The notes under the pieces are model-generated. The model ran no database searches and was not told where the DNA came from. It saw only the letters and a list, made by a program, of their open reading frames with translations. Positions 7,556-55,745 of a DNA stretch of 64,000 nt are shown here, in pieces. A program made the position numbers and the translations under genes. Position 1 is the first letter of the stretch. Each line of letters starts with the position of its first letter. Source of the stretch: Eledone cirrhosa (taxonomy: Eukaryota); the NCBI GenBank assembly GCA_964016885.1, contig CAXHJY010000177.1, positions 28,055 to 92,054 of the forward strand, read 5' to 3'.

Positions 7556-7702
7556 AGGTTTATAAGTAGTATGGTAGATTGTGTGTTGGTGTTGTGAATT
7601 GGAGTGGAAAACTTTTTGTAAGCGAATGAGGTCTAGGAACTTGTTCATCGATTCCCCCAAAATAAAGTCATGTTCTACATTTTTCTTGTCTTCCATTTGC
7701 AG

Positions 7703-7845
7703 CAAAAAGAAAGATATGAAGTCAATATCTACTCCCCGGTTACTGGAACAATATGTAGCTGCTTATGACTTCAACAAACAGACTAAAGATGAGATTGATA
7801 TTAACGCTGGAGATACTCTAGAAGTTATTGAGAAATATGAGGATG
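7703..7845 (+). CDS. SH3PXD2: SH3PXD2 (Tks4/Tks5)-like adaptor, exon encoding N-half of SH3 #1
   Basis: Pyrimidine tract plus ttgcAG acceptor at 7701-7702 and GTATG donor at 7846. Translates KKKDMKSISTPRLLEQYVAAYDFNKQTKDEIDINAGDTLEVIEKYEDG, resembling the Tks5 first SH3 (LEQY...EVIEK..SGWW). Phase-1 end fits the next exon. Confidence 0.88.
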
Positions 7846-9694: not shown

Positions 9695-9888
9695 GAGGTA
9701 TGTCAAACATGCGGCCCTTTACAAGCACACCTGCAGCCCACACAAAGGTTTTTACAGCACAAGCATGTTTTATCTTCGTAATATAAAATAAAAAAATTAG
9801 TTGTATTGCGCGCGATTAGTTGTCGTGTGTGGTTCTCAGACAACACATATGTGACCCATATCGGGGGACCCTCAGTTTGACATGCCTG
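9695..9888. mobile_element. hAT (Charlie-like) MITE
   Basis: TIRs gaggtatgtcaaac / gtttgacatgcctg, with perfect 8-bp TSD GCCTAGCT at 9687-9694 and 9889-9896. Confidence 0.85.
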
Positions 9889-12302: not shown

Positions 12303-12407
12303 GCTGGTGGCTAGTGAACAAAGACTGTGAACAAGGTTACGTTCCTGGAAATTATTTGAAGAGATGTGACAGTCTAAAGGATTCCAGAACTTTGGCAGAG
12401 AACAGTG
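12303..12407 (+). CDS. SH3PXD2: SH3PXD2-like exon, C-half of SH3 #1
   Basis: ttgcAG at 12301-12302 and GTAAGG at 12408. Phase 1/1. Reads (G)WWLVNKDCEQGYVPGNYLKRCDSLKDSRTLAENS(G), with SH3 WW and GxVPxNY motifs. Not in the ORF track. Confidence 0.9.
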
Positions 12408-15585: not shown

Positions 15586-15968
15586 TGTGAATGTTAAACG
15601 TCCAGCCTGATAAACCTCCAGGCTCAAGACAGAGTTTAGACTTTTAAGTGTTTATGTTTAAGATTTATAAGTAGTATGGTGGTTTGTGTGTAGAGGTGTG
15701 TGTTAGTGTTGTGAATTGGAGTGGAAACCAAGTTTGTGTGTGTGTATGTATGGTTTATTAGTAGTATGGTGGTTTATAAGTAATTATCGATGATGATTGT
15801 GGTTTGTGTGTAGAGGTGTGAGTCTGGGTTGTGAAATGAAGTGAGGTCAAGTATATGTGGATGTGAGGGATGATGAATCTGTGGATGTTGATATTTGTGA
15901 TAAGTTGTTTGTTGAGCAATCAGTTTGTTGCTATTAAACTGATACCCTGTTTGATACTCCTTTTTCAG

Positions 15969-16086
15969 GAGAAAAATATGTCTGTATAAAGGCCTTTGAA
16001 CCTGAGGGTCCTGATGATCATTCTTTGAGAGTTGGGGTAATAGTGGAACTCATCCAGAAGAATCTTGATGGATGGTGGTGGGTGAG
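15969..16086 (+). CDS. SH3PXD2: SH3PXD2-like exon, N-half of SH3 #2
   Basis: ttttcAG at 15967-15968 and GTGAG at 16087. Phase 1/2. Reads (G)EKYVCIKAFEPEGPDDHSLRVGVIVELIQKNLDGWWWV, matching the Tks SH3-2 pattern EKY...KNLEGWW. Confidence 0.9.
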
Positions 16087-16802
16087 GTGAGAAAAATCTC
16101 CTGTATCGCATCATATTGCCACTTATTTTAACCCTTTTAACAATTTTTTTTTTTTTTTTTTTTTTTAAAGATTAACATCCTGATATCTGACTTCACCATT
16201 TCTTTCCATGTCTTATTTAATCTTTAATCTTCCTACTGTAAGTACACTCCACACATCACTCATCACAAGTCTCTCAAAATATTCAACACTTGTATTATAT
16301 AATCATTGCTGCTGTGTTTACAATATACACGGCTAATGCCTTATCATTCAAAACCCATTCATTTACATCATATAATCATTGCTGTGTTTACTGCACATAC
16401 ACAGCTAATACCTTATCACTCAAAACACTCAACATTCATATCATATAACCATTGCTGTTGTGTTTACTACACACTTACCCAGCTAATGCCTTTAATACTT
16501 TAATACCCAGCTGACCTTTCTACTCACTTGTAAGCAGCAGTTTTAACAACACAATAACAATTCACATCCTATAAATCGTATAAGACTCATTCTCTTTAGC
16601 CTCTTCAGTATTAACACTTTTTTGCACATGCATCATTTTTGCTGATTTACATATGCTCGCCTTATTTCAACAGAGTTTGCAATTTACAATGTATACATTC
16701 TTTATTTTATTCTCATCTTCTTAAGTTCCTTTTTCTCCCTACCAAGCATTGAACGAGTTTCATCCTTTCTATAGAAATTTTGATTAATGGAGCTAAGATT
16801 GA

Positions 16803-17090
16803 GTGGAGGTGCATGGCCTAGTCATTAGAGTGTTGAATTTGTGATCATAATGTCATGGGTTTGATTCCTCGACTGGGTTGTGTGTTGTGTTCTTGAGCAA
16901 AACACTTCATTTCACATTTCTCCAGTATACTCAGCTGAAAATGAGTATCAGCAATAGCTGGGGGTTTAACCCTATGATGGACAGGCGTCCTGTCCAGGGT
17001 GGAGTCTTGTACTCTCAGTTGCTAAATACTATGGAAACCTAGACAAGCACTGGCCTGATGAGTTTCCAGGCTTGAGACAGACTTTTTTTT
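16803..17090 (+). mobile_element. tRNA-derived SINE (third tail type; also about 12745-12960 -, 13670-13856 +, 19245-19517 -)
   Basis: Same head and core, tail ctgggggtttaaccctatgatggac...gagacagac. Confidence 0.8.
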
Positions 17091-19579
17091 AGAGATAAGA
17101 TTGCTAGCCTCAGGCTCCATCCCTCTTCAACACAGACCAAAAACCAACTTAGTGTTTCAAAGTCAAGATAAAATGAAGTTCTAGTTGTGTACTGGGATTG
17201 ATATAATGGACTTTTTCCTCTCCTCCCAAAATTGCTGGCTTTGTGCTGTTGGAAAGAATCATTTAGTCAACAAATTAGAAGTGATTAAAAACAAGGTGCT
17301 GTGAGTGACGTTCAATTGGTGAAAGTAGGGTGCAATCATATAATGTCTGAACATTGTTGACTTGTAGAGTTATGTTGAACAGCTGTTGTCATATGTAGGA
17401 TCATCATCACTGTTTAACATCTATTTTCCATGCTTCCATTGGTTAGACAGGCTGTCAAGTTATGAGACTAGAACAGGTCAGGTCAAGTGATCATGTCTTG
17501 CTCACACTCTATGTTTTTGGCTTGGTTTTCTATGACTGGATGTCCCTTTCTAATGCCAACCATATTACAGTGATGGATCTGGTTATTATTTGTGTTCATT
17601 GTAAAAATTGCCCTGGAAGGCAGGCAGGTAGTTTTCCCCCGTCTTGTGAATATAGCAAAATAGGTAAAGTTGACCTCAGCAAGATTTGAACTCAGAACAC
17701 ATTGTTATTAGATCATAGATTTGAACTCAGAACACATCAATGTTATTAGATCATAGGTTGTGTGGTAAATGATTAAAAGGACTGAGGATAGATACTTTCC
17801 TCATAAGCCAAGCCCTCATCCAAGTTCTACTTAGAGAGGACAGTGAGGAGAATGAAATAAGTGGTGCCCTCTAAGTAAAGTTGTTGAAAGGTGGATGAGA
17901 GTGACAGGTAAAGATGGCCAAGTTGATTGGGCTTCTCTCAACATTCATTTGTAGGTTGGAGAACACAGCTGGGAGAGTGCACTTTCCTTTTATAACACAA
18001 GATTTATGAGTTTTCCTGATTGCTGTCACTCTATGGGGACATTTCATTTTATTTCCTTTTCTACTATAATTTTTCTGACTTTTTTCTCTTTGATTCTATG
18101 AAAACTTTCTCTGTTTTTCTAATTTATCCTTTCAAAGTCCCCTCATTAAGTTATCCTTGTGGTAGATAGAAAGAATTATCAATAGACAAAATAATTGTTT
18201 CTACTTTAGGCACAAGGCCAGCAATTATCCCAGTGTATCACTGGTACTTTATTTTATCGACCCCGTAAGGATGAAAGGCAAAGTCAACCTCGGCGGGATT
18301 TGAACTCAGATCGTAAAGGGACGTAACTATGCTGGAAAGCATGGCGTCCGACCCTCTACCGATACTGCCAATCCACCGTCAATAGACAAAATAATATTAA
18401 TAATAATGGTTTTTTTTCTTTTGGAACAAGGCCAGCAACCCCCCCCCCCCCCTCCCCAGTGTATTACTGGTGCTTTATTTTATCGACCCGCAAGGATGCA
18501 AGGCAAAGATAACCTCGGTGGAATTTGAACTCAGAACGTAAAGGGCCACAACTCTGTGTTGCAAAGCATGGCGTATGACGCTCTACCGATACTGCCAAAC
18601 CACCGCCCTTATGGTGGTTGGTAAAGTAGCAGCAATGCACCAGAGTCAATTTAATTGACTTTACCCTTCCCCAAAATTGATGGCCTTGTGTCTAAATCAG
18701 AAACCAGGCAGTGAATTGGTAGTATCGGTAGAGGACAGACGCCATGCTTTGTAGCATAGAGTTATGCCCTTTTATGATCTGAGTTCAAATCCCACAAATT
18801 GCTGGCCTTGTGCCTATATAAGAAACGATTATTATTCCTGTTTCCAATAGTTTCTACTGTGCCACCAGGTGCAAACGTGTTCCAAAGAGGAGGCGGGGGT
18901 GGTCAGTATTATGTTATATGGGTGTAGAGCTGTGTTTATATGCAACATTTGTTTTCCCATATTGTGAAGCTTGTTTTGTTATTTCTGTTGTTATATTAGT
19001 GTTTCGATTGTGATGCGAGTTATTTTATTGTGTGATGGTTGTATATTGTATGTGAGTTGTGGTATTTTGTTGTGTTATGTGACTTTCACAATGCTCTGTG
19101 TTAAGATACTATCAACATTTAAATTAACAAACCCATTTTTAGATATTTTATGCTAACTCTTTACAGGAAGTTAAGAGTTAATTACATTTAGAAGATCATA
19201 CTTTTTTTATGCTAGTTGGTAAAAAAATCTGTAAAAAAAAAAAAGGTCTGTCTTGAGCCCGGATGTTCATCAGGCCAGTACTTATCCCAGTTTCCATGAC
19301 ATTAAGCAACTGAGAGTCCTCTGGACAGGATGCCAGTCAATCACTGAGTTAAACCCACAGCTATTGCTGCTGTTACTCATTTTCAGCTGAGTATACTGAA
19401 GCAATGTGAAATGAAGTGTTTTGCTCAAGAACACAACACACAACCCAGTCCAGAAATCGAACCCATGACATTAGATCATATGGCCAACACCCTTACCACT
19501 AGGCCGCATGCTGCCACGCTTATAATTATAAACTGTGCTTATTCAGGAGAAATTTTTTCTTTTTTGTTATCTTTCACAG

Positions 19580-19952
19580 CATTAATGGCAAAGCTGGTTG
19601 GGCTCCAGCCACATGTCTTCAATTGGCTGAGAAACATATCCAAGATAAACTTGATAGACTTGATAACCTTGGTTCTGGTCCTATAGAAACAATCAGCAAC
19701 CTATCAGAAGTGAGCGATTTACTGAAAGGCCAGCTAACAGGTGTTGGTAATACCCACATTATTTCAGTTGATAGTGAGGCTATTAAACCGAAAAGCGCAA
19801 GTTTCAATAATGATTATGAAAGTGATGAATTTTCTGATGATGATGACAATTACGACAAGGATGAGGAAGAAAATTATTATAGTTGTATCACCTATGCTCC
19901 AGCCCCTAAACGCAGAAATACTTACAAAGACATGAAAAATTCTTCACTTAAG
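19580..19952 (+). CDS. SH3PXD2: SH3PXD2-like exon, C-half of SH3 #2 plus acidic linker
   Basis: ttcacAG at 19578-19579 and GTAATT at 19953. Phase 2/0. Reads (S)INGKAGWAPATCLQLAEKHIQ...DDDDNYDKDEEENYY...NSSLK. Confidence 0.88.
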
Positions 19953-20104
19953 GTAATTTACTATGTATCATCATCATTTAGCATGCATGGGTTAGATGGG
20001 CTTTCATGTTTCGAAACTAGACAGGTCAGGTGACATCTTGTCCATACGTTCCTTTTTCGGTTGGTTTTCTACTGCTGGATATCCTTCCTAACACCAACCA
20101 CATA

Positions 20105-20670
20105 GCGTGTATTGGGAGATTTTGTTGTGTCACCGACACTACCACCTTACAGGGTGTACTGGGTGATTGTGTTAAAGCACCAACACTACCACCTTAAGGG
20201 TGTACTGGGAGATTTTGTTGTGGCACCGACACTACCACCTTACTGGGTGATTGTGTTGAAGCACCAACACTACCACCTTACAGGGTGGACTGTGTGATTT
20301 TGTTGTGCCACCAACACTACCACCTTACAGAGTGGACTGGGTGATTTTGTTGTGGTACCAACACTACCACCTTACAGGGTGGACTGGGTGATTTTTTTTT
20401 TTGTAGCACAAACACTACCACCTTACAGGGTAGACTGGGTGATTTTGTTGTAGCACAAACACTACCACCTTACAGGGTGGTCTGAGTGTTTCTGTCATAG
20501 CATCAGCACAGTGAACTGGGTGCTTTTTGTTGTGGCACCAACACTACCACCTTACATGGTGGACTGGGTGCTTTTTGCTGTGACACCAACACTACCACCT
20601 TACAGAATGGATTGGGCGTTTTTTGCTGTGGCACCAACATTACCACCTTACATGGTGGACTGGGTGCTTT
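20105..20670. repeat. about 47-48-bp minisatellite grown from an RTE/SINE 3' UTR motif
   Basis: Unit gggtgattttgttgtggcaccaacactaccaccttacagggtggact, about 11 copies, adjoining an RTE-type tail at 19966-20100. Confidence 0.85.
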
Positions 20671-20784
20671 TGAAACAAATAATAGCACAAGAAAATTTTA
20701 ACAAATTTTCAATTCATTAATAAACGCTTATAAAATGTATACATTGTTTGATCAGGTTTTTCACTGATATTTTCTCTTCCTTAG

Positions 20785-22491
20785 ATCAATGAAAACCATT
20801 ATTATGGCTTCCCAGAAGCGACATCTAATACTTGTTCAGATGAAGATAGCAATTTAGAGTCCCTGAACACTGTCAAGGGCGTTCTTAAACCCAACTTAGA
20901 AAATGTGACAACTTCTGGCAAGGAGCAGAAATCTGATAAGAATTTTACTGATGAACTTCAATCAAAAATTAACCGCAACAGTGCTAACATAAGTGCATCT
21001 GGTAAAAATGGTGGTGCACTACGACCAAAAGCCACACCACCACCCCCTCCTAAACGTCCAGCTTTTCCAACTCCTAAGAAGAAGATATCTCCAAAAGTAT
21101 CAAGTGCGCCTGGAAGAAACGCACCTGATCCCCATCCACCCAGCACTGAAACTGTAAAAGTGTTGCCAAATGCAGCAAGTGAATCAAACTTGTCCAATGA
21201 ACTTCAGACAAAATTGAACAAATTGAAGAAACAACAACAGACATCTAAACCAAATTCTACAGCATCACCGCTCAAATATGGTGATGTAAAGCAGCCGACC
21301 CTTGCAAAACCACTCATTCCTAAAGATAAACCTACTGCAAAAAATGTCTCCCTTCTCTCACCACCACCACCACCACCATCATCATCAGTGGCTAAATCAC
21401 TGAAACAGAAATCAAACATCTCAAGTAATTTTCAACACAACATTATCAAATCAAAAGAGAGAGAAACTGAGTCAAAGGAAAAAGATAGTGTATTGTCTAA
21501 TGTACCTAAACTTGCAGATAAGATTGCCAAATTTCAGAATCCGGTTGGAATTACAGATGAAGACGTAAATACAGGAAATAACCGAGGTCTGAATTTGTTG
21601 AAACGGCAACAAGAAAAGCATAAATTTGAAGGATCTAATTTACAGGATAATGTCAGTGAAATAAATTCTTCTAAATTAAAACATATTACTGATACTAAAC
21701 CGCCATTCCCTTACATACCCCAGAAACCAATAGTTCCCAGCAAAGCTGCTCTGAAACCCCCAGGCATTAAGCCTAAAACTACCCCCCTAAAACCGAAATT
21801 AAATGAAAATTTGACTCACAGCAATGACCACAGAACAAAGACCCCTCTATATCAAACTCAGAAATTAACACCTGGTCTAAAACCAGCATCACTACAAGTT
21901 GATAATAATTTGACTGTTCAGCAGCAATCTTCTCCAAGGAATAACCTAGTTGAAAAAACAGCAGATGGTGCTGAAACCAAGTATCAAGCTAATCGTATCT
22001 ACCAAGCAGAGAATGATGAAGAGATTAGCTTTCGCCATGGGGATTCCATTGAAGTGTTGGAGAAAGACAAGTCAGGTTGGTGGCTGGTGAGAGTTGGCAC
22101 CAAAGAAGGCTGGGCACCCTCAAATCACATTGAAGAAATGAAACCAGCAAATAACCGTAAGTCAATTCCTCCTAAGAAACCGCTTCCCAAATTACCACCA
22201 GAAAGCCCTGGCCAGAATACGTTACATTCTAACAACAATAACTGGAATAACACTTCAACGAGTTGTAGACAAGATGACAACAGCAAGGATAACAGTGGAA
22301 TGGCAGCTGACTGCCAATATATAGTCTTGGAAGATTTCAGTGCTTTTGGTGACGAAGAACTGTCTGTGGAGGAAGGAATGTATGTGACTGTAATAGACAA
22401 ATCTAACAATGATTGGTGGTATGTTTCACTGAAGTCTGATGAGGAAGGATGGGTTCCTGCAAACTGTATAAGCACTGTACATGATGTGTGA
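20785..22491 (+). CDS. SH3PXD2: SH3PXD2-like terminal exon: Pro/Lys-rich linker with PxxP motifs, SH3 #3 and SH3 #4
   Basis: cttAG acceptor at 20783-20784, in frame (40 codons) with ORF 20905-22491. Two SH3 domains (YQANRIY...GWWLVR...EGWAPSNHI; YIVLEDF...DWWYV...EGWVPANCI), then TGA stop. Confidence 0.92.
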   Translation: MNENHYYGFPEATSNTCSDEDSNLESLNTVKGVLKPNLENVTTSGKEQKSDKNFTDELQSKINRNSANISASGKNGGALRPKATPPPPPKRPAFPTPKKKISPKVSSAPGRNAPDPHPPSTETVKVLPNAASESNLSNELQTKLNKLKKQQQTSKPNSTASPLKYGDVKQPTLAKPLIPKDKPTAKNVSLLSPPPPPPSSSVAKSLKQKSNISSNFQHNIIKSKERETESKEKDSVLSNVPKLADKIAKFQNPVGITDEDVNTGNNRGLNLLKRQQEKHKFEGSNLQDNVSEINSSKLKHITDTKPPFPYIPQKPIVPSKAALKPPGIKPKTTPLKPKLNENLTHSNDHRTKTPLYQTQKLTPGLKPASLQVDNNLTVQQQSSPRNNLVEKTADGAETKYQANRIYQAENDEEISFRHGDSIEVLEKDKSGWWLVRVGTKEGWAPSNHIEEMKPANNRKSIPPKKPLPKLPPESPGQNTLHSNNNNWNNTSTSCRQDDNSKDNSGMAADCQYIVLEDFSAFGDEELSVEEGMYVTVIDKSNNDWWYVSLKSDEEGWVPANCISTVHDV

Positions 22492-31796: not shown

Positions 31797-32243
31797 CTGA
31801 ACAGAAGGAAAAGGTTAGAAATAATGTTGAGAAAGTATTGTATTGGAGGTAAGCATATCATGGGCAGATTATTACATTTAGTAAAATGTGTTTTATGATC
31901 AAGAAAAACAGATGAAGGTGATGAAATGAAAGATAGAAAATAAACTGACATGAGGCAATTAGACAGCAAAAGTAAGGGAAGCAAGAGAGAAAGTGAGAGA
32001 GAGAAGGGAGTGAATGACTATTACAGAGAAAGACAAACAAACTGAAGAATAGATGTGAGACAATGGATTAGATGTAAGACAGAATGGATGAAAGTGAGAC
32101 AGAATGAAAGAAAAGGAAAATAGAAAATGGAATAAATGAAAATCAAAAGGGGGAAAAAAAAAAAAGGTAGAAAAATGTCAGAAATAATGAAAAAATAAAA
32201 AATAAATAAAACAAAAAAAAAACAAACAGTTAAAATGACTTAC

Positions 32244-33950
32244 CTTTCAGTAAATCGTTATGTACATAATCTAGTGTTCCAGCAGGTGTGGTGGAAATGT
32301 AGGAGTTCGTGACAGAACGAGGGATTGGCTGTTTGTTGGATTGGCTCTTAGTTAACTTTGTAGGGTATTTAAAGGAGATCTTGTTAGAGATAGTAGGAGA
32401 ATGAATTCCATTGGTTTGGATAGCTACTGTTTTTATATTACTGTCGTCTTCATCAATTGTTAGTTTAGCTGGTATGGTTTTATGACTGAGCCTTGAGGTC
32501 TGGCTCTGTGCTGTGTATGTAGTACTGCGATGAAGAAGTGATGGTGATGGTGACAATGATGATGACGACGGTGATGATGATGATAATGATGATGATGACA
32601 ACGACGGTGATGGTGGCACAACCTTCAGAGGAGTCACTTTCTTATTCTGAGTATACATCTGTGGAAATGACAGCAATGGGGCTGTGCCACCATCACAAGA
32701 CTTTTGTTGATAATATTGATCAGTAATGGTAATAACCTGAGCATCTTTGCTCTTTCCCGTGGTTGACTTCACTGCAACGACACTACTGGAGTTTGACAGC
32801 TGTGTCCCTGATTTTGATGGCATTTGGGATTGTTGTTGTTGTCTAGTTGGCAAAAGCTGTTTCTTTTGATATTGGTGTTGCTGCTGTTGATATGATTGTG
32901 CTTGGTGCTGCTGTTGTTGGTATTGCTGCTGCTGTTGTTGGTATTGCTGCTGCTGTTGTTGGTATTGCTGCTGCTGTTGTTGGTATTGCTGCTGCTTCTG
33001 CTGCTCATATTCTGTTGATTTCTGCCTTTGCTCCAACTGTCCATATAAATCTTGTTGTTGTTGCAGCTGTTTTAATTGCATTTGTCGTTGCAAAGCTTTA
33101 TATACAACTTGGTACACCCGGTGTTGTTTCTGCTGCAGTTCATACATTTTCTGATCACTCTGCTGACCTTGTTGTTGTTGCAGTTGTTGCAGCTGGGATT
33201 TTAGTTCATTTTGATATTGCTGCAATGTATATAATACTTCTTGCACATGTTGTTGTTGCTGTTGCAGTTGCTGTAAATGCTGTTGTGGTTGTTGCAATTG
33301 ATTTGGATGATATTGCTGCAGTTGTTGCTGTTGATTTGGAAGGTACTGCTGCAGTTGCTGCTGTTGCAGTTGATAGGAATGGTACTGCTGCAGTTGCTGC
33401 TGTTGTGGTTGTTGCAGTTGATAGGGATGGTACTGCTGCTCTTGAGAGAGTTGTTGTTGCTGCTGCTGTTGCAGAGGCTGATATTGTGGTTGCAAATATG
33501 ATTGGTATTGTTGCAGCTGTTGCTGTTGTGATTGTTGTTGGTGCTGAAGTTGTGATTGCGATTGCTGCTGCAATTGCTGTAGAGTACAGCCAATCCCAAC
33601 ATTCTCTTTCCTTTCCCCTTTTCCATTATAATCCAATGCTCCTGCTGCTGAGGAGGAGGATACTGTTGCTGCTGATGGTGAAGCTCTCTTGGAAACTGTT
33701 GTAATAGATTCATTTTTCAAGTCAGCCTCCTTTTGGTCCATAGTTGCTGGCAAATTGATCACTGGAACATCCCTTTTGCTTTCTTGGTATTTAACTCCCA
33801 GGTTTGATTTAGTGGTAGCTGAGTTACTGGCTGGTCGGAGATAGATGTCCATAGAATGTTTGCATATTGTAGTTTTGCATCTCAACTCATGTGCTAAAAT
33901 TACCTGGGTTAGTTCAGCTGGTTGTGAATAGATCAAAGACTTTACAAGAC
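32244..33950 (-). CDS. large exon of polyQ/Ser-rich protein
   Basis: attcAG acceptor at 33952-33951 and GTAAGT donor at 32243. 1707 nt open, with Q-rich (QQQYQQQ) and S/P-rich tracts plus unique sequence at both ends. Confidence 0.8.
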
Positions 33951-34329
33951 CTGAATAATAGGAATATTAACATAACATAAATAATAATAATAATAATTGT
34001 TTCTATATTTGGCACAAGGCCAGCAATTTAAAGGGAGGGGAAAGTCGATTAAACTAACCCCAGTGTATTACTGGTACTTTATTTTATCAACCACGTAAAG
34101 ATGATGGGTAAAGCTAACTTTGGTGGGATTTGAACAAAAATAATAACAGCACAATAACAATAATAATTGTTTCTACTTTAGGTACAAGGCCAGCAATTAT
34201 CCAGTTCATTACTGGTACTTTATTTTATCGACCCCGTAAGGATGAAAGGCAAAGTAAACCTCGAATAATAATCAGCCAAAATGGGATTCCTCCAAATAGT
34301 CTTTGGAGTGACTATACTCGATAACGTGT

Positions 34330-38539: not shown

Positions 38540-40185
38540 TACAGCGAAAAATGAATACATTTTTTTTGTGCCTTCACACTTATCAGACCCCACCTGGATC
38601 AGCTGAGTCATATTTTCACAGAGGAGATGAAAAAGAAAGCACAAGATTGTGAGACAGCTGACTTGGCTATAAAAATACAAAGCCAAAGTCAGTCGCATCA
38701 ACACTCACAACCAACACAAATAAAGGACCCAGGGTAGCCACCACAGACACCCACGCAAATGCTATATTAGCAGCCCCCACTGACACCACAAATGTCACAT
38801 CAGTGCTACTACTAAATGTCAGAGGCCTGGTAAAACTGACCTAACCACAAGCAATCAAACAATCTGCATGGCACTAACTGAAACGTACCTGACAACTAGC
38901 ATAGCAGATGCAGAAATACACAAACCAAAGTATATTGTATTTTATACTAACAGGAGGGGGAGGGGAACTCATGGCAGAGTTGCTTTGTACATCCGTGAAG
39001 AATATCACATCATTAGTACTGTTGTAATATTCCAACTCAGTCTGTGACATACTAATAGTATACATGAAACAACTCAAAATGGTAATATGTGTCACATATT
39101 GACCACCAGATATGAGGACAAATTTAAAGATTTGCCTAAGAAGGATTAAAGAAGTACTGATCAGTTTGGATCAGAGTCTCAGCATCCTACTACAGGAGAT
39201 TTCAACTTCTCCAAAGTCAAATGTCCCTAAGGCCAGCCCTTCAGTAATGACGGCACCTGAACAAAGGTAGACAGAATCGTTGTTGGACCTTACAAACACT
39301 CTTCATGGAACAAAAGGTGAGAATACCCTGGATCTCTGCTTTACGAATAACACGGAGGTCAGCCACGATGTGAAAGTGACACCATCGATTTTCTCGGACC
39401 ATGACAAAGTAGAACTAGGAATAATGCATAGATATACAGCCTACAGGAATCACTCGATCTCTATCCAGCTTAAGTTTCCACATAGCAAACTGAAAAAGGA
39501 TTCAGGAGGAGCTCCTGATGCAAAACTGAGCCGAGAGTCTCTCTATGGAAGATGTCAACATACAACTTGAACAATTCATGGAAATAATAGATGTCATATC
39601 CTCCAAGTTTGCCTCGAAAAGAAAGACCAACAGGCACAAGAATATTATTCCCAGAGACAGGAGACTTCTTATGAGAAGAAGAACAAAGATCTCAAACTGG
39701 CTACATACACAAGCAAGGAACAAGACGGAATCCCATTAAAAGCAGGCACTGTTACAAATTGAAAATGAACTCAAACTCTCCCATGGAAAGGAGAGGGCAG
39801 AAAGAGAGGCCAAGGCTATAGAAACCATAAAGACGAACCCTAAGGCCTTCTTTGAATTTGCAAAAGAGACTGCCTCGGCACACTACGGGATAGGGACACT
39901 TTCCCATAAAAGCAGTTCACTGACCGCAAACCCCCAAGTGTGGCACAGAATGAACAATACAAAAGTGTTTTCTCACCTCCAATGAGTCACATGCCAATAA
40001 GTAAGCCAGATGAGTTCTTTAACACAACTGCTTTACACAGAAAAATGGCAACCATCAATCACATAGATATAAAGGTGAAAGATGTAATATCAGCCATAGA
40101 CAAAATGAGACCAAATTCTGCAGCTGGTCCTGATGGTTTCTCAGCAATCCTCTTAAAAACATTCAAGAGAACATTAGCAAAATCA
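38540..40185 (+). mobile_element. degenerate CR1/L2-group LINE relic, related to the 50179-52965 element
   Basis: Frameshifted matches: [50 protein letters not shown]. Ends abruptly at the Tx1 junction. Confidence 0.85.
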
Positions 40186-41557
40186 CCGCCTCACCAATGG
40201 AACTTGTCCCCTCCACAAGAATTTGAAGAGGAGCCGTTCCAACTTGACGAGGCGCGGACGGGGGCAAGGCACGACGGTTAGGCGGTAGTAGATGACGGAC
40301 GCGATGTACGCATTCGCCACCTCCGCGCGACCTTTCAGTGATAGCTTCCTCCCAGCCCATTTTTGGGTGAGACTGGCTACTCTGCTCGTTACCTCGTCCC
40401 AATTCTTTTCCACCTGGAGGTCTGTTCCGAACCAAACCCCAAGCAACTTTACTGGTCCGTCCGTCCAGCGCCCCACGACGCTGTTGGACGGCATGGGCTT
40501 GCCTCTCCAGGTTCCGAGCTGCAAGCCCACCGACTTTTCCGGGTTAAGTTTGGCTCCTGTCAACCTTTCATATTCCTTCAATAAGGTGCCGACCACCTCG
40601 ATTTCTGAGGTGTTCGACACCATCACGGTGATGTCGTCCGCATAAGCCGACACCGCCTTTCCACATCCCGGTTCGAGCGGGATGCCCTGCAAAAGCTCCA
40701 GCTTCCGCAGTAAAGGCTCGAGAGTCAATACGTACAGAAGGGAAGAGAGAGGGCACCCTTGACAGACCGATCGGGAGAGCCGAAATGGTTCCGAGAGGTG
40801 GTCATTAACCTTGACCACCGAGCGTGTGCCGCTGTGCATTGCAACGATCCAGCTTCTAAAGACAGGGCCGAAGCCAGCTGCTTTGAGGACAAACTCCAGA
40901 TACCGATGGTCGACCCTATCGAATGCTTTCGATTGATCTAAATTGATCAGTGCCCCACCGAAGCCAGATTTACACCCTACCCTCTCTATGATGTATCGCA
41001 TGAGGTGGAGATTGTCGTGTATGGACCTGGCTGGGATTGCGCAAGTTTGCGCCTCCCCAACCAAATCCTCGACGACAAGCGCCAATCTCTTTGCTAACAC
41101 CTTGGCCAAAATCTTAAACTCTGTGTTGAGCAGAGTTATGGGCCTGAAGTTGTCTAATGTATTCCTCTTGTTCTCGTCTTTCCTTATCAGCGTCACCACT
41201 CCCCTGCTCACAGAACTGGGAATACTCCCATTCTGCTGCCAGTTGCAGTAGAGTGCTTCGAGGAGTTCGGAGAACAAGTCTGGCATATTTACGTAAAGCT
41301 CGTAGGACAGGCCATCCAAACCGGGTGACTTGCGCCTCATGCAGCCGACAAGGGCGTCCTGAATTTCGGCTGAAGTAATCGGCCTTTCGCAGCGCTCAGC
41401 GTCGACCGTCGAGATGCGCGGCAAGCCGTCAAGGTAGGGACTGAAATCCGCTACTCTCTCTGACTCGCCACTCTCCCTGAACAACCGAACAAAGTGCTGG
41501 AGAAAGGCCTCACACATCCGCTTGGAATCGCTTATCTCGTGTCCGTCTCGGTCCGCC
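40186..41557 (-). mobile_element. Tx1/L1-clade LINE, RT part, inverted relative to its 3' part
   Basis: 444-aa ORF with KSPGLDG, NFRPITLLN, DQSKAFDRV, QGCPLS, YADD, KLSLKGR, FLW. Confidence 0.92.
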
Positions 41558-41816
41558 TAATAAGAAGAAAATAAGATTTCAAGGAGTGTAGGAATAATAA
41601 GCTAATGTACTTAGAATTAAGTTCATCAGTTAGAGATCATGAGTGATAATGTGAGATACGTAGATATAATTGTTTGGTCCGAAGGAATAAACAACTGCAA
41701 AGATGAGATTGATTTATGGGCTGACGAGATAATTGTAGGCATTACTACCCCATCCTAGTGGTATAGATGTAGGGAGGCTAGAAGGTTATGGTTCTGAAGT
41801 GGGCTGTGTGAGAATG

Positions 41817-42991
41817 CGGAGGGCTGGGCATGCCGTGGCTAATGATGCGCAGACATGCGTTGAGGCTGCGACATCTCCAGATATTCCGCCTCAATGGTGA
41901 ACAGGTGTGGTCGCCGTTTATCAGACGGGCCTTTCCGCAGCTCATTTCTTTGACTGAGCTGCAATCCTGGGTCAAGAAGAGACCGAGACTGGGTGACTGG
42001 CACCTGGAATGTTGCCAGGCACTCACTGCCCTCTACCAAGCGGGCAATGCGATCAGTGGAACTTCCACTCTCGAGTTCTATAGAGGATTAGTGGTGGGCA
42101 AGTGCGATGACGCACTCGGAGAAGCTTTGGGCCTCGACGAAGTCGAACTGACCAGTCTGTACCGGAGGACTTTTGAGCCGGGGACGATGGACAATTTCCA
42201 GAAATCCCTCGCTTGGCAGTGCTACCGGGGGGCACTGCCGGTTCGGGATAAACTCTACAGGCACGGAAGTGCTGTCAGACGAACCTGCCCAAGATGCGCA
42301 CAGAACGACGAAACCGTTCTGCACGCACTTGTCCAATGTCCGTGCATTACTGACTTGTGGAGTTATGTCGAACAGCTACTGTCGCGTGTGGAACGAATCC
42401 GGCTATCAGCCGAGTCCATAGTGAAGATCGAGCCGCCACCTTCCTTAGGTCAGGAAGAGCAGGAAATTTTCCTCCGTCTGGTGGCAGTTGCGAAAGAGAT
42501 TATATGGTGGACCAGGTTGAAAGGACTAAAGACAGACACTTTTCTCTTCGGCCAATCCCTCATCAACTTCTTCAAGTTTCACCTGGAAAGGAGGGTGAGA
42601 GTGGAGAGAGAAGTGCTGCCCCCCCAGTATATTTGCTAAAAGGTGGGTGAATGTGGCGAGAATGGCTCGTGTGAATGGGCCTACTCTGACCATGCGCCTA
42701 TAGGCTGGCTAACTTGAGGAGAGGGGTGCTCTCCTGGGTGCCCTAAAAACGTAGGGTGGTTCAGGATTGGTGGGGTACCTGAAGCACCCCAGGGTCGTAC
42801 ACCCCCTATCGGGGAATTTATTTTATTACATTTATGCATAGTTTATTTTATATTTTTATATTTTCATTGTTAAATTGGTCTTGCCATTGTGCACTTTTAC
42901 TCCACCTTATTGTAAACCCCCACTGTCCCTGTCTTTGTATTGTCCCCTACATGTCGGCCCTGGTGGCTAATAAATGAAATCATTATTATTA
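41817..42991 (+). mobile_element. Tx1/L1-clade LINE, 3' part (zinc-knuckle region, 3' UTR, (TTA)n tail)
   Basis: Begins GGLGMP. CPRC...ETVLHALVQC is the L1/Tx1 CCHC motif. AATAAA and (TTA)n at the end. Confidence 0.9.
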
Positions 42992-44371: not shown

Positions 44372-45658
44372 CATATATATACACACATATAAATATATAC
44401 ATATATATATATATATATATATGTACATATATATACACACATATATATATACACACATATATATATATACATATATATATACACACATATATATATATAC
44501 ATATATATACACACATATATATATATATACATATATATTACACACATATATATATATATACATATATATACACACATATATATATATACATATATATACA
44601 CACATATATATATATACATATATATACACACATATATATATACATATATATATACACACATATATATATATACATATATATATACACACATATATATACA
44701 CACATATATATATATACATATATATACACACATATATATATATACATATATATTCACACATATATATATATACATATATATTCACACATATATATATATA
44801 CATATATATTCACACATATATATATATACATATATATTCACACATATATATATATACATATATATTCACATATATATATATATACATATATATTCACATA
44901 TATATATACATATATATTCACATATATATATATATACATATATATTCACATATATATATACATATGTATTTACATATATATATATATACATATATATACA
45001 CATATATATATATATACATATATATACACATATATATATATATACATATATATACACATATATATATATATACATATATATACACATATATATATATATA
45101 TACATATATATACACACATATATATATATATACATATATATGCACACACATATATATATACATATATATACACATATATATATATATATACATATATATA
45201 CACATATATATATATATATACATATATATACACATATATATATATATCTATACACATATATATATATATCTATACATATATATATATATCTATACATATA
45301 TATATATATATCTATACATATATATATATATATCTATACATATATATATATATCTATACATATATATATATATCTATACATATATATATATATCTATACA
45401 TATATATATATATCTATACATATATATATATATCTATACATATATATATATATCTATACATATATATATATATCTATACATATATATATATATCTATACA
45501 TATATATATATATCTATACATATATATATATATCTATATATATACATATATATATATATATATACATATATATACATATATATATACACATATATATACA
45601 TATATAATATATATACATATATATACATATACATATACATATATATACATATATATAC

Positions 45659-45691
<33 letters not shown>

Positions 45692-45767
45692 ATATATATA
45701 TATATATACATATATATAAAAATATACAAATATATACATATACATATACATATACATAAATATACAT

Positions 45768-45798
<31 letters not shown>

Positions 45799-46226
45799 AT
45801 ATATACACATATATATATATAATATATATATACATTATACATATACATATACATAATAACATATACACTATATAATATATATACACATATATATATATAC
45901 ATATACATATATATATATACATATATATAATATAAATATATATATATACACATATATATAATATACACATATATATATATATACATTAACTATAATTATA
46001 TAATATACATATATATATATATCTATACATATATATACATATATATATATACTATATACATATATATACATATATATACATATATATATATATATACATA
46101 TATATACATATATATACATATATATACATATATATACATATATATATATACACACATATATATAAAATACATATATATATATACCATATATAATATATAT
46201 ATATACATATATATACATATATATAC

Positions 46227-46259
<33 letters not shown>

Positions 46260-46393
46260 CATATATATACATACATATATATATACATATATATACATAC
46301 ATATATATACATATATTATATATATACATATATATATATATATACACATATATATATATACACATATATATATATATCTATACATTTATATAC

Positions 46394-46426
<33 letters not shown>

Positions 46427-46582
46427 CATATATATACATATATATATATACATATATATACAATATATATATACATATATATATATACATATACATATAT
46501 ATATATACATATATATACATATATATATATACATATATATACATATATATACATATATATATATACATATATATACATATAC

Positions 46583-46614
<32 letters not shown>

Positions 46615-47000
46615 ACATATATATACAGATATATATACATATATATATATATATATCTACACATATATATACATATATATACACATATATATACATATAT
46701 ATATATATATATCTACACATATATATACATATATATACACACATATATATACATATATATACATATATATACACATATATATATACACATATATATACAT
46801 ATATATATATACATATATATATATACATATATATATATACATATATATACATATATATATATACATATATATACATATATATATATACATATATATACAT
46901 ATATATACATATATATATATACATATATATACATATATATACATATATATATATACATATATATACACATATATATACACATATGTATATACATATCTTC

Positions 47001-47223
47001 AGTGAAGGCGTGTGGCTGAGTGGTTAGGGAATTGGATTTGGAATCGCAAGGTTGTGAGTTCGATTCCTGGACCAGGTGATGCGTTATGTCCTTGAGCAAG
47101 ACACTTTATTTCACGTTGCTCCTTCTACCTGGAGTTGCGACCGATAGATAGTATTAGCAATTGGAAAGACCAACGGAAACATTCTTCCCTCGGTCCGATT
47201 TGACGAAAGTCGATCGTTCCTAT
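47001..47223 (+). mobile_element. tRNA-derived SINE (structured-tail subfamily; also about 7172, 11861, 13375, 36077)
   Basis: agtgaaggcgtgtggctgagtgg...gttcgattcc...ccttgagcaagacactt...ctacctggagttgcgacc. Confidence 0.85.
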
Positions 47224-47585
47224 AAAATATATATATATATATATATACATATATATACATATATCATATACATATACATACATATACACATATACATATA
47301 TATATACATATACATATACATACATATACACATATATATATACATATATATACATATACATATACATACATATACACATATACATATATATACATATATA
47401 TACATATATATATACATACATATACACATATACATATATATACATATATATACATATATATATACATATATATACATATACATATATATACATATATATA
47501 TACATATATATACATATACATATATATACATATATATATACATATATATATACATATATATACATATACATATACATATATATAC

Positions 47586-47616
<31 letters not shown>

Positions 47617-47675
47617 CATATATATATACATATATATATACATATATATATACATATATATACATATATATATAC

Positions 47676-47720
<45 letters not shown>

Positions 47721-47771
47721 CATATATATATATACATATATATACATATATATATATATACATATATATAC

Positions 47772-47838
<67 letters not shown>

Positions 47839-48151
47839 CATATATATATATACATATATATACATATATATATATACATATACATATATATACATATATA
47901 TATATACATATACATACATATACATATATACATATATATATATACATATATATATATATACATATACATATATACATATATATATATATACATATACATA
48001 TATATACATATATATATACATACATATACATATATATACATATATATATACATACATATACATATATATACATATATATATACATACATATACATATATA
48101 TACATATATATATACATACACATACATATACATATATATACATACACATAC

Positions 48152-48183
<32 letters not shown>

Positions 48184-48295
48184 ATATACATATACATATA
48201 TATATATATACATATACATATATATACATATATATATACATACACATACATATATATATATATACATACACATACATATATATACATATACATAC

Positions 48296-48326
<31 letters not shown>

Positions 48327-48333
48327 CATATAC

Positions 48334-48365
<32 letters not shown>

Positions 48366-48672
48366 ATATACATATACATATATATATACACATACATATA
48401 TATATATATACATATACATATATATATATACATATACATATATGCATATATATATATATATACATATATATACATATATATATATATATATACATATATA
48501 CATATATATATATATTGGAATAAATGCTCTGAAATAGCGATATATATGTGAATATAGACATAGAATATTCGAAAATATTCTGTATGTTTATAATAAACAT
48601 TTTGAAGACCTAATCGCTATAGAATAGAATACGTCACGTATTACAATTAGATTCTCGATAAAAGCAAGGGAA

Positions 48673-48715
48673 GTAATCTACGCGTTTCATTCTCGTTAGA
48701 AATCATCAGGACTAC
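48673..48715 (-). ncRNA. type I hammerhead ribozyme, copy 1
   Basis: Minus strand reads GUAGUC-CUGAUGA-u.uucu-aacg-agaa.u-GAAA-CGCG-UA-GAUUAC: stem I GUAGUC/GAUUAC, canonical core, palindromic ACGCGU stem III, GUA cleavage triplet. Confidence 0.88.
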
Positions 48716-48982
48716 ATATCCAGTGCTTTTATCGAGAATGACACAGCTAGAGACTTATAGAATACTTAGCTGTGTACAGGAACTGGTTTGAAAGAGCGGT
48801 TGCCGGTCCGGCAGAAATTAGAAATTGGAATAAATGCTCTGAAATAGCGATATATATGTGAATATAGACATAGAATATTCGAAAATATTCTGTATGTTTA
48901 TAATAAACATTTTGAAGACCTAATCGCTATAGAATAGAATACGTCACGTATTACAATTAGATTCTCGATAAAAGCAAGGGAA

Positions 48983-49025
48983 GTAATCTACGCGTTTCAT
49001 TCTCGTTAGAAATCATCAGGACTAC
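48983..49025 (-). ncRNA. type I hammerhead ribozyme, copy 2
   Basis: Same sequence as copy 1, offset +310. Confidence 0.88.
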
Positions 49026-49292
49026 ATATCCAGTGCTTTTATCGAGAATGACACAGCTAGAGACTTATAGAATACTTAGCTGTGTACAGGAACTGGTTTG
49101 AAAGAGCGGTTGCCGGTCCGGCAGAAATTAGAAATTGGAATAAATGCTCTGAAATAGCGATATATATGTGAATATAGACATAGAATATTCGAAAATATTC
49201 TGTATGTTTATAATAAACATTTTGAAGACCTAATCGCTATAGAATAGAATACGTCACGTATTACAATTAGATTCTCGATAAAAGCAAGGGAA

Positions 49293-49335
49293 GTAATCTA
49301 CGCGTTTCATTCTCGTTAGAAATCATCAGGACTAC
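49293..49335 (-). ncRNA. type I hammerhead ribozyme, copy 3
   Basis: Same sequence as copy 1, offset +620. Confidence 0.88.
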
Positions 49336-49681
49336 ATATCCAGTGCTTTTATCGAGAATGACACAGCTAGAGACTTATAGAATACTTAGCTGTGTACAGG
49401 AACTGGTTTGAAAGAGCGGTTGCCGGTCCGGCAGAAATTAGAAATTGGAATAAATGCTCTGAAATAGCGATATATATGTGAATATAGACATAGAATATTC
49501 GAAAATATTCTGTATGTTTATAATAAACATTTTGAAGACCTAATCGCTATAGAATAGAATACGTCACGTATTACAATTAGATTCTCGATAAAAGCAACCG
49601 CTCTTTCAAACCAGTTCCTGTACACAGCTAAATATTCTATAAGTCTCTAGCTGTGTCATTCTCGATAAAAGCACTGGATAT

Positions 49682-49724
49682 GTAGTCCTGATGATTTCTA
49701 ACGAGAATGAAACGCGTAGATTAC
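49682..49724 (+). ncRNA. type I hammerhead ribozyme, copy 4 (in inverted unit)
   Basis: gtagtc CTGATGA(49688-49694) tttctaacgagaat GAAA(49709-49712) cgcg TA gattac, read directly on +. Confidence 0.88.
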
Positions 49725-49862
49725 TTCCCTTGCTTTTATCGAGAATCTAATTGTAATACGTGACGTATTCTATTCTATAGCGATTAGGTCTTCAAAATGT
49801 TTATAAACATACAGAATATTTTCGAATATTCTATGTCTATATTCATATATATATATATATAC

Positions 49863-49905
<43 letters not shown>

Positions 49906-50049
49906 CATACATATACATATATATACATATATATATATACATATACATATACATATATATACATATACATATACATATGCGTGTGTTTCTTATTGGCAAC
50001 ATGACCCTCCCAAAGTATAACAATATATATATATATATATATACATATA

Positions 50050-50178: not shown

Positions 50179-52965
50179 TCTCTTTTACCTGTTTCAGCCA
50201 TCCGGCTGAGGCCATGCTGGGGCACCGCCCTTGTTGCTACACATTTTATCTCCAGCCTGTATAGGTTGGCCACTGGTGTAGGAGGGAGTTTGTTGCTGCT
50301 GCCCTTAGGTTTCCCTCGTGTCTTGCTGTGGGCTCATCCGGGATCCTGGATAACAAGGTGTCGAGATGTTTCTTAAAGACATCCACCTCCACGTCATGCA
50401 AGTCTCGCAGATGCCTCGGCAGCCTGTTGAAGAGTTGAGGGCCCTTGAATCCCAGGCTATTGCAATACCTGCTCCTTATTCTAGATGTGGAAGACGGGAC
50501 CTTTGGCACCACACAGTGACGTCCTGTTCGACGGTTGGTCCAGCTCCCAATGCCAAAGTTTGGTGCTAGTCCCTCCAGGATTTTCCACATGTAGATCACT
50601 GCGTATCTCTCCCGTCTTCGCTCCAAGGAGTAGAGGTTCAGTTCCTTCAGCCTCTCCCAGTAGCTTGTCTCCCTCATCTTGGCAATCCTCTTGGTGTCGC
50701 TTCGCTGGATTGCCTCAAGCTCCGTGGTTAGTTTGACACTATGGGGTGACCACAGCTGGGAGCAGTAGTCCAGGCGGCTTAGGACAAAAGTCCTCCACAG
50801 TGTCAACATGGTGTCTCGATCTCTTGTAAGGAAAGTCCTCAAGATCCAGCCAGCGAATTGTCTACATGTTGTCACCACCTTCATGATGTGTGAAGAAAAA
50901 GATGCATCATCGCTCATGTCTATGCCCAGGTCTCGTATCGATTTTGACACGGGGATATCGGTCCCTCCTGGTCCTGTGTAGCTGTGTTCCGCTATATTTG
51001 TGTTTGTGTTTGCAGGTTTGTATTGTAGGGCTTGGAATTTGCCAGCATTAAACTGCATGTTGTTTTCTTCCGCCCATCTGTATATGGCATCCAGATCCTG
51101 CTGTAAGAGGGCAGCGTCAGCCGGGTTTTTGATTGCCTGTGCTACCTTAGTGTCATCAGCATAGCTAGTGAGGGATGTTGTTGCATGCACCACAGAGGGC
51201 ATGTCCGAGAGAGCCACCAAAAACAGTAGTGGTCCCAGGACTGTCCCCTGGGGCACCCCACTTGTTATCGGTGTTTCCCTCGAGAGGGCCCCATTTGCTG
51301 CGACTGCCTGGCTTCTGTCCCTTAGGAAGCCATGCAGCCACTCACCTACTTTTCCAGTTATGCCGAGTCCGTGTAGTTTGTGACATATCATTCCGTGGTC
51401 GACCTTGTCAAAGGCCTTCGCAAAGTCAAGATATATCACGTCTACATGTGAGCTGTCTAGTAGTTGTCTCAGTAGCCAGTCGTAGTGATGTAGCAGCTGT
51501 GTAATGCAGCTTCTTCCTGGGCGGAAGCCATGTTGCGTGCTAGTCAGGCGGTCATTTACTTCGAGGAAAGTGATTAGTTTCTTTCTGACGACTCGCTCCA
51601 TGACCTTACTGATATGCGACGTCAGGGAGACTGGCCTATAGTTCTTGGCCTCCGCTCTACTACCTCCTTTATGGATAGGGCATATTGTGCCTTCTTTCAG
51701 CTCCCTGGGTAGTACACCGCTAGCCAAGGAGCTTCTGAAGAGCATCTTCAGTGGAGTTGCTAAGGCCCGCTGACATATTTTTAGGAGAACTGCTGGGAAT
51801 GCATCAGGTCCAGCAGCCGAGTCTGTTCTAATTTCATCAATGGCGTACACCACATCCTCCTCCTTTATGTCTATGTGGTTGATGGTTGCCATTTCTTGAT
51901 GTAGTGTTGTGGCATCAAAGAACTCCTCTGGCTTCGTTATTTGTATGTGTCTCAGTGGACATGTGAAGACACTTTTGTACTGTTCGTTCAGTATTTCACA
52001 TATCTCTTGGGGATTTTCGGTTAATGAACCGTCCGTGTGGAAGAGTGGTCCAATCTTGCAGTGTACTGAGGCAGATTCTTTTGCAAATTTAAAGAAGGCC
52101 TTAGGGTTTTTTTTAATGTTTTCTATGCCCCTGTTCTCTTTCTTTGCCCTCTCATTCTCATGTGAAAGTTTGAGTGCAATCTCGGTGTCAAGTAGTGCAC
52201 GTTTCAAATAGGATTCCTTCTTGTTTTGGTTTTGTTGATTATTCAACTGGTTTGAGAGTTTAATTCTACGTCTCATAAGGATTTTCCTATCTCTGGGAAT
52301 AAGATTTTTGTGTCTGTTTGCCTCTTTCTCCGGGACACACTTTTTGCATATGGTGTGTATCGTTGTCATGAAGTGTTGAAATTGTGTGTTAGTGTCTTGT
52401 GTGGCGATGTTTTCACTCCATGTTTGCTTCTGGATTTCACTCTTAATCTTTTTCCAGTTAGCCCCGTAGAAGTTAAGGCTGGATAGCGTCCCGGAGCTTC
52501 TTGGTGGTTTTGTCTCTGTTGGTTCTGTTGGACCACATATCATTAGCTCTACTAAGTTATGATCCGAGATAATTGTTGGTGTCACCTTTACATTGTGGAT
52601 GAGCACTTCGTTGTTTGTAAAACAGAGGTCCAGGACATTTTCGCCTCTTGTTGGGAGGAGTATTGCTTGCTCCATGAACAGCCTGTGTGTGAGGGCCAGC
52701 AGGGATTCCGTCTGTCTCTGTTCTATTGACGTCATTCCAGAGAGGAGGTGGCCCTCAGGCCATTTGACCTTTGGTAGGTTGAAGTCTCCCAGCAGTAGGA
52801 TGTTGAGACCCTGGTCCAGTTTGTCAAGGACCTCTTCTATCCTACTTAGGCTATCCTCAAATTTACCCTCATGACTGGGGGCATCGGGCGGCCGATATGT
52901 GACACATATTACCGTCTGTAGTTGCTTCATATGTATTATCAGTGTGTCACAGACTGAGTTTGAAT
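50179..52965 (-). mobile_element. young 5'-truncated CR1/L2-group LINE; ORF2 open for about 900 aa (partial AP endonuclease + RT)
   Basis: Motifs [58 protein letters not shown]. Stop at 50246, short 3' UTR, inserted in (TA)n. Confidence 0.95.
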
Positions 52966-55177: not shown

Positions 55178-55745
55178 CGTTATTCCGGGTTGAATCGGAG
55201 GTAACCACAGTAAGTAAGGTACTCAATACATAGCAGAGTATAATAGTTTTAATATAGATGAGATTCTACAGGACTAGAACTGTTTCATTCATTAGAAATC
55301 ATCAGGAATCTGGGTATCAAAAATAAATATGGTATTTATAGGTCTCTACAAGTGGTAGGAGAGGGTGGGGAGTGGGATGGGTGCAGGTCATTGGTTGATA
55401 GAGAAGGGAATTCATTAAAGGCTAATTCTACATAGCTATAGTTAATTTATATTTATTTATGTTTTTAGAGTAACAAAGGCAGACAGAAATCTATAAACAA
55501 GTTCCGGATGGCATACCATTCCTTGTCAATAAGTTTCTCTTAAGCTAGCAGATGTCTATAAAATCAGTAGGGGGTCATTCATGCTCGATAGAATTAAAGA
55601 AAAGGGAGATTCTTTAAAAGCTAAAGTCATTAAGTTCTGCTAAGTGACAAAGGTCTAGGGAATTCTGCAGACAGATTCAAAATACTGAGTGCATATCTTA
55701 CTATTATCTTCGAACTTCTCCTAAACTAATCAACAATGTGCCAAA
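55178..55745 (-). mobile_element. probable non-autonomous Penelope-like element / pLTR fragment carrying a hammerhead
   Basis: Unique island in the TA field with a hammerhead and a TATAAATA box (55340-55333) just upstream of it. No ORF recognised. Confidence 0.5.
55261..55311 (-). ncRNA. type I hammerhead ribozyme with monomeric stem III
   Basis: Minus strand reads AGAUUC-CUGAUGA-u.uuc-uaau-gaa.u-GAAA-CAG-uucuaguc-CUG-UA-GAAUCU: perfect 6-bp stem I, 4-bp stem III, GUA triplet. Confidence 0.82.

Follow-up and report, generated by a model that had tools for sequence, protein, structure and literature searches.

In Eledone cirrhosa, a hammerhead-bearing repeat was found inserted in (TA)n microsatellites as two head-to-head arms, the outer ends of which lie at about position 130 (short end, S) and about position 165 (long end, L) of the repeat unit. 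The ribozyme features are ordinary on their own, and this insertion layout is the larger result; the preliminary description of this DNA had missed the two-armed insertion with Penelope-type ends around the array. The layout is that of the "inverted copy plus 35-nt tail" footprint of Penelope, and points to double priming on one RNA, which was probably circular. Our preferred reading, to which we assign a probability of about 0.65, is that of a retrozyme residing in TA microsatellites as two arms, which would be cut only as a dimer; the released unit would probably be circularised and then probably reverse transcribed by an enzyme of Penelope type, starting on the two strands of a DNA break. 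Such a young and abundant family can be read as a record of its own insertion chemistry.

The tandem unit and its array in the window

The hammerhead sits in a 310-bp non-coding tandem unit whose family pattern has 17,872 matches in the 3.0-Gb genome. The exact core gave 4,212 genomic matches, and a loose hammerhead pattern of the same geometry 55,516, versus 26 for its reversed control. A tandem non-coding unit of 150-450 bp with a type I hammerhead in each copy, low GC and many loci are the features of non-LTR retrozymes; all were found here and, on sequence grounds, the element is a young family of this class. In the window, i.e., the whole stretch of 64,000 nucleotides that was analysed, the following features were located:

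44373..48513, no strand: left TA-rich microsatellite flank
48514..49597, minus: left arm, made of 3.5 units of 310 bp that do not differ from one another; its outer end falls at unit position 165 (L site)
48514..48548, minus: 35-nt "tail", unit positions 131-165, at this end only (cf. PMC8557442, PMC11167929)
48651..48739, minus: first copy of the type I hammerhead with extended stem I (pattern and fold)
48651..48666, minus: 3' strand of the 16-bp clamp (inverted repeat; compensatory changes in sister families)
48678..48679, minus: predicted cleavage site after GUA, between 48679 and 48678 (hammerhead geometry)
48680..48685, minus: palindrome ACGCGU, helix III as one pair plus tetraloop (sequence, folding)
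48689..48709, minus: core CUGAUGA (48703-48709), together with stem II, which has a U·U pair at the base and an AACG loop (sequence)
48716..48718, minus: loop 1 bulge UAU, facing the U of 48672 (fold)
48724..48739, minus: 5' strand of the 16-bp clamp (inverted repeat; compensatory changes in sister families)
48961-49049 and 49271-49359, minus: identical hammerhead copies (0 mismatches between units)
49594..49597, no strand: inversion junction, 4-nt microhomology, unit positions 12 and 186
49594..49845, plus: inverted arm on the right (252 bp), whose outer end falls at unit position 130 (S site)
49658-49746, within the right arm: fourth hammerhead
49846..49978, no strand: right TA-rich microsatellite flank

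The two arms differ by two private changes: compared with the left arm, the right one shows a substitution and a deletion of 3 nt. Among four runs of unrecorded kind, two (X1 and X2) gave one self-closing 340-nt unit-matching contig each and a third (X3) gave 569 contigs; because contigs cannot separate an RNA circle from tandem DNA, they are no evidence for RNA circles.

Anatomy of the hammerhead

All the features that the preliminary description gave for the 89-nt motif at 48651-48739, i.e., the 16-bp inverted repeat, the palindrome, the AACG loop and the U·U pair, are present, but on the minus strand. Core numbering follows established hammerhead knowledge. The motif contains the CUGANGA...GAAA...UH core, three helices and an open-ended stem I and, judged by these elements, is a genuine canonical type I hammerhead. 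Stem I counts 6 bp (GUAGUC/GAUUAC), and stem II 4 bp closed by the U·U and followed by GAAA. In the predicted fold, stem I is extended by a UAU/U bulge, 3 bp (GGA/UCC), a 2x2 loop and the perfect 16-bp helix; the interruption previously described as a single internal loop exists, but in this divided form. The perfect inverted repeat of 16 bp compares with at most 14 bp in 1000 dinucleotide shuffles of the unit. The loop 1 of hammerheads has an established tertiary role and, by analogy, the UAU bulge (48716..48718) is likely the tertiary partner of loop II. A UAN/U bulge also occurs in other hammerhead families of the same genome, and variants of the core and stem II were found in other insertions (U7A, and A-U in place of U·U).

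The motif had been likened to palindromic minimal hammerheads, a type that does not suit it. Indeed, PLE (Penelope-like element) minimal hammerheads are described with a helix II of 7-8 bp and a short helix I, without helix III or loop-loop contact (PMC4209133), whereas helix II has here 4 bp, and helix I 6 bp followed by a bulge and an extension. No hammerhead model of Rfam matched, neither at gathering nor at E<=10. The clamp, formerly presented as a special feature, is shared, since every inspected hammerhead-repeat family extends stem I. As for the U·U replacing G-C at stem II, it is present as reported but was already published, the axolotl HHR_Amex2 having it at the base of helix II (PMC7229834).

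Folding of one unit, two units and the circle

Cleavage is predicted to require two adjacent copies of the ribozyme acting as a pair. Folding was performed with a nearest-neighbour model, tertiary contacts and kinetics lying outside it. Without constraints, a two-unit transcript reached its minimum free energy as a double hammerhead (-110.7 kcal/mol versus -105.0 kcal/mol for two single ribozymes), with a palindrome-palindrome pairing probability of 0.84-0.93 in the native two-ribozyme stretch. In this model the double hammerhead is favoured by just ~6 kcal/mol, and the local 25-bp stem I would form before the dimer during transcription. The pairing probability of A15.1-U16.1 was 0.0 for both the single motif and the circular monomer, in which clamp and stem I were formed (P 1.0); the predicted circle is highly self-paired (z -4.4). 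Holding the clamp open in silico lowered the palindrome pairing from P 0.92 to 0.02. Helix III is, according to these predictions, unstable alone and completed by a second copy.

Hence, the double hammerhead of two adjacent units proposed in the preliminary description is supported in silico, as is its statement that stem III cannot form alone, although this stem, drawn there as 2 bp with a 2-nt loop, is better read as the single pair A15.1-U16.1 with the palindromic tetraloop CGCG. Its dimer interpretation is plausible as a case of an already known type: palindromic helix III, dimer cleavage and U·U are published for the amphibian (newt and axolotl) retrozymes (PMC7229834, PMC4209133, PMC7761336), and the axolotl HHR_Amex1, with one pair and a palindromic tetraloop, is described as needing dimers (PMC7229834, Cervera and de la Pena 2020). 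The motif differs from the axolotl ribozymes in combining the Amex1-like helix III with the Amex2-like U·U (PMC7229834). By contrast, dimerisation alone does not explain the tandem layout, as had been suggested, because sister families with a longer helix III are also tandem and one of them (A3) showed no dimer fold. Under the same folding, family C reached P 0.22 at most.

Alternatively, the monomer may work in the cell, helix III being stabilised by a contact between loops 1 and 2, by the clamp or by a protein, and the palindrome being incidental. We find this doubtful while granting it some weight: nearest-neighbour folding ignores tertiary contacts, most invertebrate retrozyme hammerheads are reported to cut as monomers (PMC7229834) and the ribozyme of the anole PLE is described as protein-assisted (PMC11167929), but the self-complementary tetraloop differs in each of the four one-pair families of this genome (CGCG, CUAG, CAUG and CCGG) and the axolotl one-pair architecture needs dimers (PMC7229834). 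The palindromes of the other hammerhead families are ACUAGU, ACAUGU and ACCGGU, the latter in Neptune-type PLEs, and non-palindromic forms represented 3 of 100 among the matches listed for the loose hammerhead pattern.

Conservation of the structure

Genomic copies argue for selection on the ribozyme structure. The covariation that the preliminary description had proposed as a check was found across sister families. It was assessed on 16 sequences hand-picked from 78 distinct matches (8 of this family, 7 of sister family A2 and 1 of A3) and thus on three lineages only; 16 of the 25 pairs had changed on both sides and 90.3% of cells were paired. The clamp was kept in the sister families through compensatory changes. 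Within the family, 19 substitutions were fixed across whole insertions, indels being left out of the count. None of them hit the invariant core, and all six at paired positions kept the pair, four of these being G·U wobbles which pair on the minus (ribozyme) strand only. One haplotype had a 1-nt bulge in stem I.

Layout of the insertions

Of the first 10 loci, nine had two arms in head-to-head orientation, one outer end falling close to unit position 130 and the other close to 165. End-specific patterns gave forward counts of 661 and 733, the reverse counts being inflated by overlapping matches, from which roughly 1,300-1,500 insertions can be estimated in the genome. Along contig C1, within its first 114.4 Mb, these patterns detected 55 short ends and 54 long ones, five long-end places beyond this limit being left out. 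They formed 39 divergent pairs, each composed of one S and one L end (22 SL, 17 LS; p 1.8e-12), and 31 unpaired ends. Twenty of the latter were examined, of which 10 belonged to two-armed insertions (all S+L), nine were one-armed and one fell in a gap. With the window and locus L032, the S+L rule holds in 51/51 two-armed insertions (39 + 10 + 2), a count that leaves out one duplicated array. All 51 display the ends known from PLEs, namely a 5'-truncated copy in inverted, head-to-head position and, on one side, a tail of 30-40 nt. No target-site duplication was discernible in the (TA)n flanks of the insertions examined. A telomerase-like addition of TA at the short end was considered and rejected, the pure TA runs showing no difference between S and L ends (medians 27 and 21, n 41 and 36, p 0.6).

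The inner ends are variable. In 41 junction rows (including 2 repeats), 24 joined through 1-5-nt microhomology, one (L151) through the 16-bp clamp and two were blunt, whereas 14 contained inserts. Only 1 of 82 inner ends lay within 10 nt of the cut site, versus about 5-6 expected under a uniform distribution. Both arms were longer than one unit in 31/39 insertions; either arm may be the longer one, and the outer ends, both precise, directly adjoin (TA)n. In one array (L050:1599-1870), 272 bp of unrelated sequence were captured at the inversion junction. A one-armed insertion (L152:504-775) starts at unit position 167, slightly past the long site, and extends around the unit to position 128, at the short site.

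Both arms shared the same haplotype in 26/26 informative insertions, including variants unique to one insertion. This is illustrated by L051, in which rare variants are fixed in 17/17 units. Such fixation of rare variants in all units of the two arms needs a one-unit bottleneck. In the long arrays L047, L049 and L059, part-array variants are scattered, and some units therefore stem from later expansion at the DNA level.

Proposed mechanism of insertion

Read-through transcription would yield a multimeric RNA. According to the folding prediction, two adjacent ribozymes would exchange the strands of stem I, their palindromes would pair with each other, and each ribozyme would cut after GUA. The clamp is predicted to hold the two termini of the 310-nt monomer close to each other, ready for joining by a host ligase, and a lone circle to be protected from re-cutting because it could not form helix III. 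A Penelope-like reverse transcriptase-endonuclease may then cut (TA)n, two cDNAs being primed at internal sites 35 nt apart on one template; for this step the footprint is observed. Both cDNAs would run round the circle, stop at random places and be joined through microhomology. Local expansion afterwards is observed for some long arrays. The mirror-image insertions likely arose from a single small RNA circle, copied by the enzyme on either side of the DNA break.

A more specific version, which we hold at even odds, considers the dimer-only hammerhead and the 25-bp clamp as a switch which would cut multimers, seal monomers and silence the circle. A dimeric Penelope-type enzyme would load its two active sites on two fixed positions of the circle, and perform rolling-circle reverse transcription from both strands of the (TA)n cut. 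If this were true, the 51/51 rule and the single haplotypes would constitute a direct genomic record of the retrotransposition of an animal circular RNA, and also of how the Penelope tail and inverted copy arise. Besides, the predicted multimer-on, circle-off ribozyme could be a usable design for stable RNA circles.

The same double priming could instead have taken place on a long uncut linear multimer, the ribozyme being slow or a passenger. Such a template would account for the multi-unit arms, the S+L rule and the inner ends away from the cut site; moreover, the anole PLE uses unprocessed RNA in vitro (PMC11167929), and 8/9 Xenopus retrozyme dimers were uncut in vitro according to a preprint (bioRxiv 10.64898/2026.07.22.740005). 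Nevertheless, rare variants fixed in all units of both arms, as in L051, and the pair-keeping changes at paired positions (6/6) are at odds with this reading, which we judge unlikely. Fold-back self-priming, in which the second arm is copied from the first as proposed for the rotifer Penelope (PMC3846280), is very improbable. Shared haplotypes and junction microhomology would follow from it automatically, and the L151 junction uses the entire clamp, yet the longer arm can be either one, the two outer ends are precise and adjoin (TA)n and, in the single case of L154, neither the S arm (100 nt) nor the L remnant (11 nt) contains the other. Finally, that the repeat is a common satellite which DNA recombination has spread, its ribozyme being a dead relic, is barely conceivable, as the dispersed insertions, the inverted arms, the (TA)n targets, the structure-keeping haplotypes and the two fixed ends, whose rule largely refutes it, outweigh the part-array variants indicative of DNA-level expansion in long arrays and the local amplification of PLE termini suggested in the preprint (10.64898/2026.07.22.740005).

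Comparison with known retrozymes and PLEs

Dimeric hammerheads of newt satellite RNA and of PLE minimal type are reportedly dealt with by Forster (1988) and Lunse (2017). The present element resembles both in its palindromic helix III completed by a second copy (PMC4209133), but is canonical, with a long stem I that the dimer fold needs in silico. That cutting takes place in multimers and is avoided in monomer circles is an existing idea (PMC4209133). With the metazoan non-LTR retrozymes, as they are described, it shares a type I hammerhead, a low-GC unit of 150-450 bp, thousands of copies and a highly self-paired predicted circle (PMC7229834). However, these are reported as direct tandems with target-site duplications, and circles were demonstrated for them (PMC7229834), whereas the arms are here head-to-head with fixed S and L ends, and the circle is a prediction from the nucleotide sequence.

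The layout is in line with descriptions of PLE insertions, in which one often finds, next to the element, an inverted copy truncated at its 5' end, as well as a 30-40-bp tail on one side (PMC8557442, PMC3846280). With the purified anole PLE, both target strands were cut and extended, two internal start sites of reverse transcription delimited the tail, and insertion did not need ribozyme cleavage in vitro (PMC11167929). The element is like endonuclease-bearing PLEs in the head-to-head copy, the tail at one end, the (TA)n target, the microhomology and the hammerhead upstream of the ends (PMC8557442, PMC3846280, PMC11167929). Unlike PLEs, it has no ORF and both arms are multimers of one short unit. 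The S+L rule is moreover strict (51/51), whereas the PLE papers speak of "often" or "optional", and report no strand preference in vitro.

The 2026 preprint considers retrozymes as non-autonomous PLE derivatives from their co-occurrence and pLTR homology in vertebrates (bioRxiv 10.64898/2026.07.22.740005). The same mobilising class is thereby designated and the mechanism left open, the main text containing no analysis of a "tail", of "head-to-head" copies or of the "target site". Two-armed retrozyme insertions were not described in the literature searched; on this point, Lunse 2017 and the supplement of PMC7229834 may be relevant. The animal-retrozyme papers, in their accounts of mobilisation, propose circles and Penelope enzymes and leave the mobilisation step open, and the Penelope papers report the tail and the inverted copy but no settled mechanism for them. 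With a 310-nt template, two mapped start sites and intact candidate enzymes in one genome, both questions become directly testable.

Candidate partner enzyme

The genome contains many PLE families. A young Hydra-type PLE has many open frames of 758 aa at 95-98% identity and (TA)n targets. Its motifs fit the Hydra description (CxCX5C, DKT, RW[K/R]), which ruled out the label of Neptune for two PLE families. Its ribozyme core matches that of the unit at 26/28 nt, including the U·U, and its end sites near +22 and +94 were found at opposite ends in 3/16 copies examined. Ends of the autonomous PLE at +90 and +125, as in the retrozyme, were thus excluded, the spacing being of about 70 nt versus 35 nt. 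Downstream of the ribozyme, the sequence is no closer to the unit than shuffles. Because the end spacing differs and the downstream sequence is unrelated, this PLE is only a candidate partner. No exact partner was found among 30 + 30 + 30 PLE loci, and no pLTR or end sequence shared with an autonomous PLE in 30 GIY-YIG loci.

A terminal fragment of the young Hydra-type PLE lies in the window (55173-~55830, minus), ending at +94 in (TA)n; its ribozyme (55261-55311) is a type I hammerhead with U·U at stem II and a 4-bp helix III. This Hydra-type PLE also forms short tandems of ribozyme and ORF start (L217/L218, L223 and L225/L226; period of 211 bp in L217/L218), which may be nascent retrozymes. 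True Neptune-type PLEs (L247-L274) have hammerheads with a U3-A8 core and the palindrome ACCGGU, and end about 180-200 nt (or 76 nt) past the cut site.

Related families and other features of the window

Sister family A2, of about 310 nt, gave 1,839 matches to one motif, and A3, of about 317 nt, carries a U3-A8 core variant. Both are older (L121-L150, L033 and L102; L181), use the end sites of the present family and have a clamp preserved by compensatory changes. The palindrome ACUAGU is carried by two other abundant families of hammerhead repeats (L061-L067 and L083-L090; C1:5738326-5752444), one of them as a 466-bp tandem of at least 31 units followed by an inversion. In family B, the ribozyme is preceded upstream by what we take to be an octamer-like motif. 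Elsewhere in the window, LINE-type endonuclease/reverse-transcriptase frames were found at 50246-52960 (minus, open over about 900 codons), 40183-42639 (plus) and 14125-15593 (minus). Gene exons and a long glutamine-rich frame occupy 7578-22491 (plus) and 32230-33966 (minus), and some segments of these exons are presumably SH3-like.
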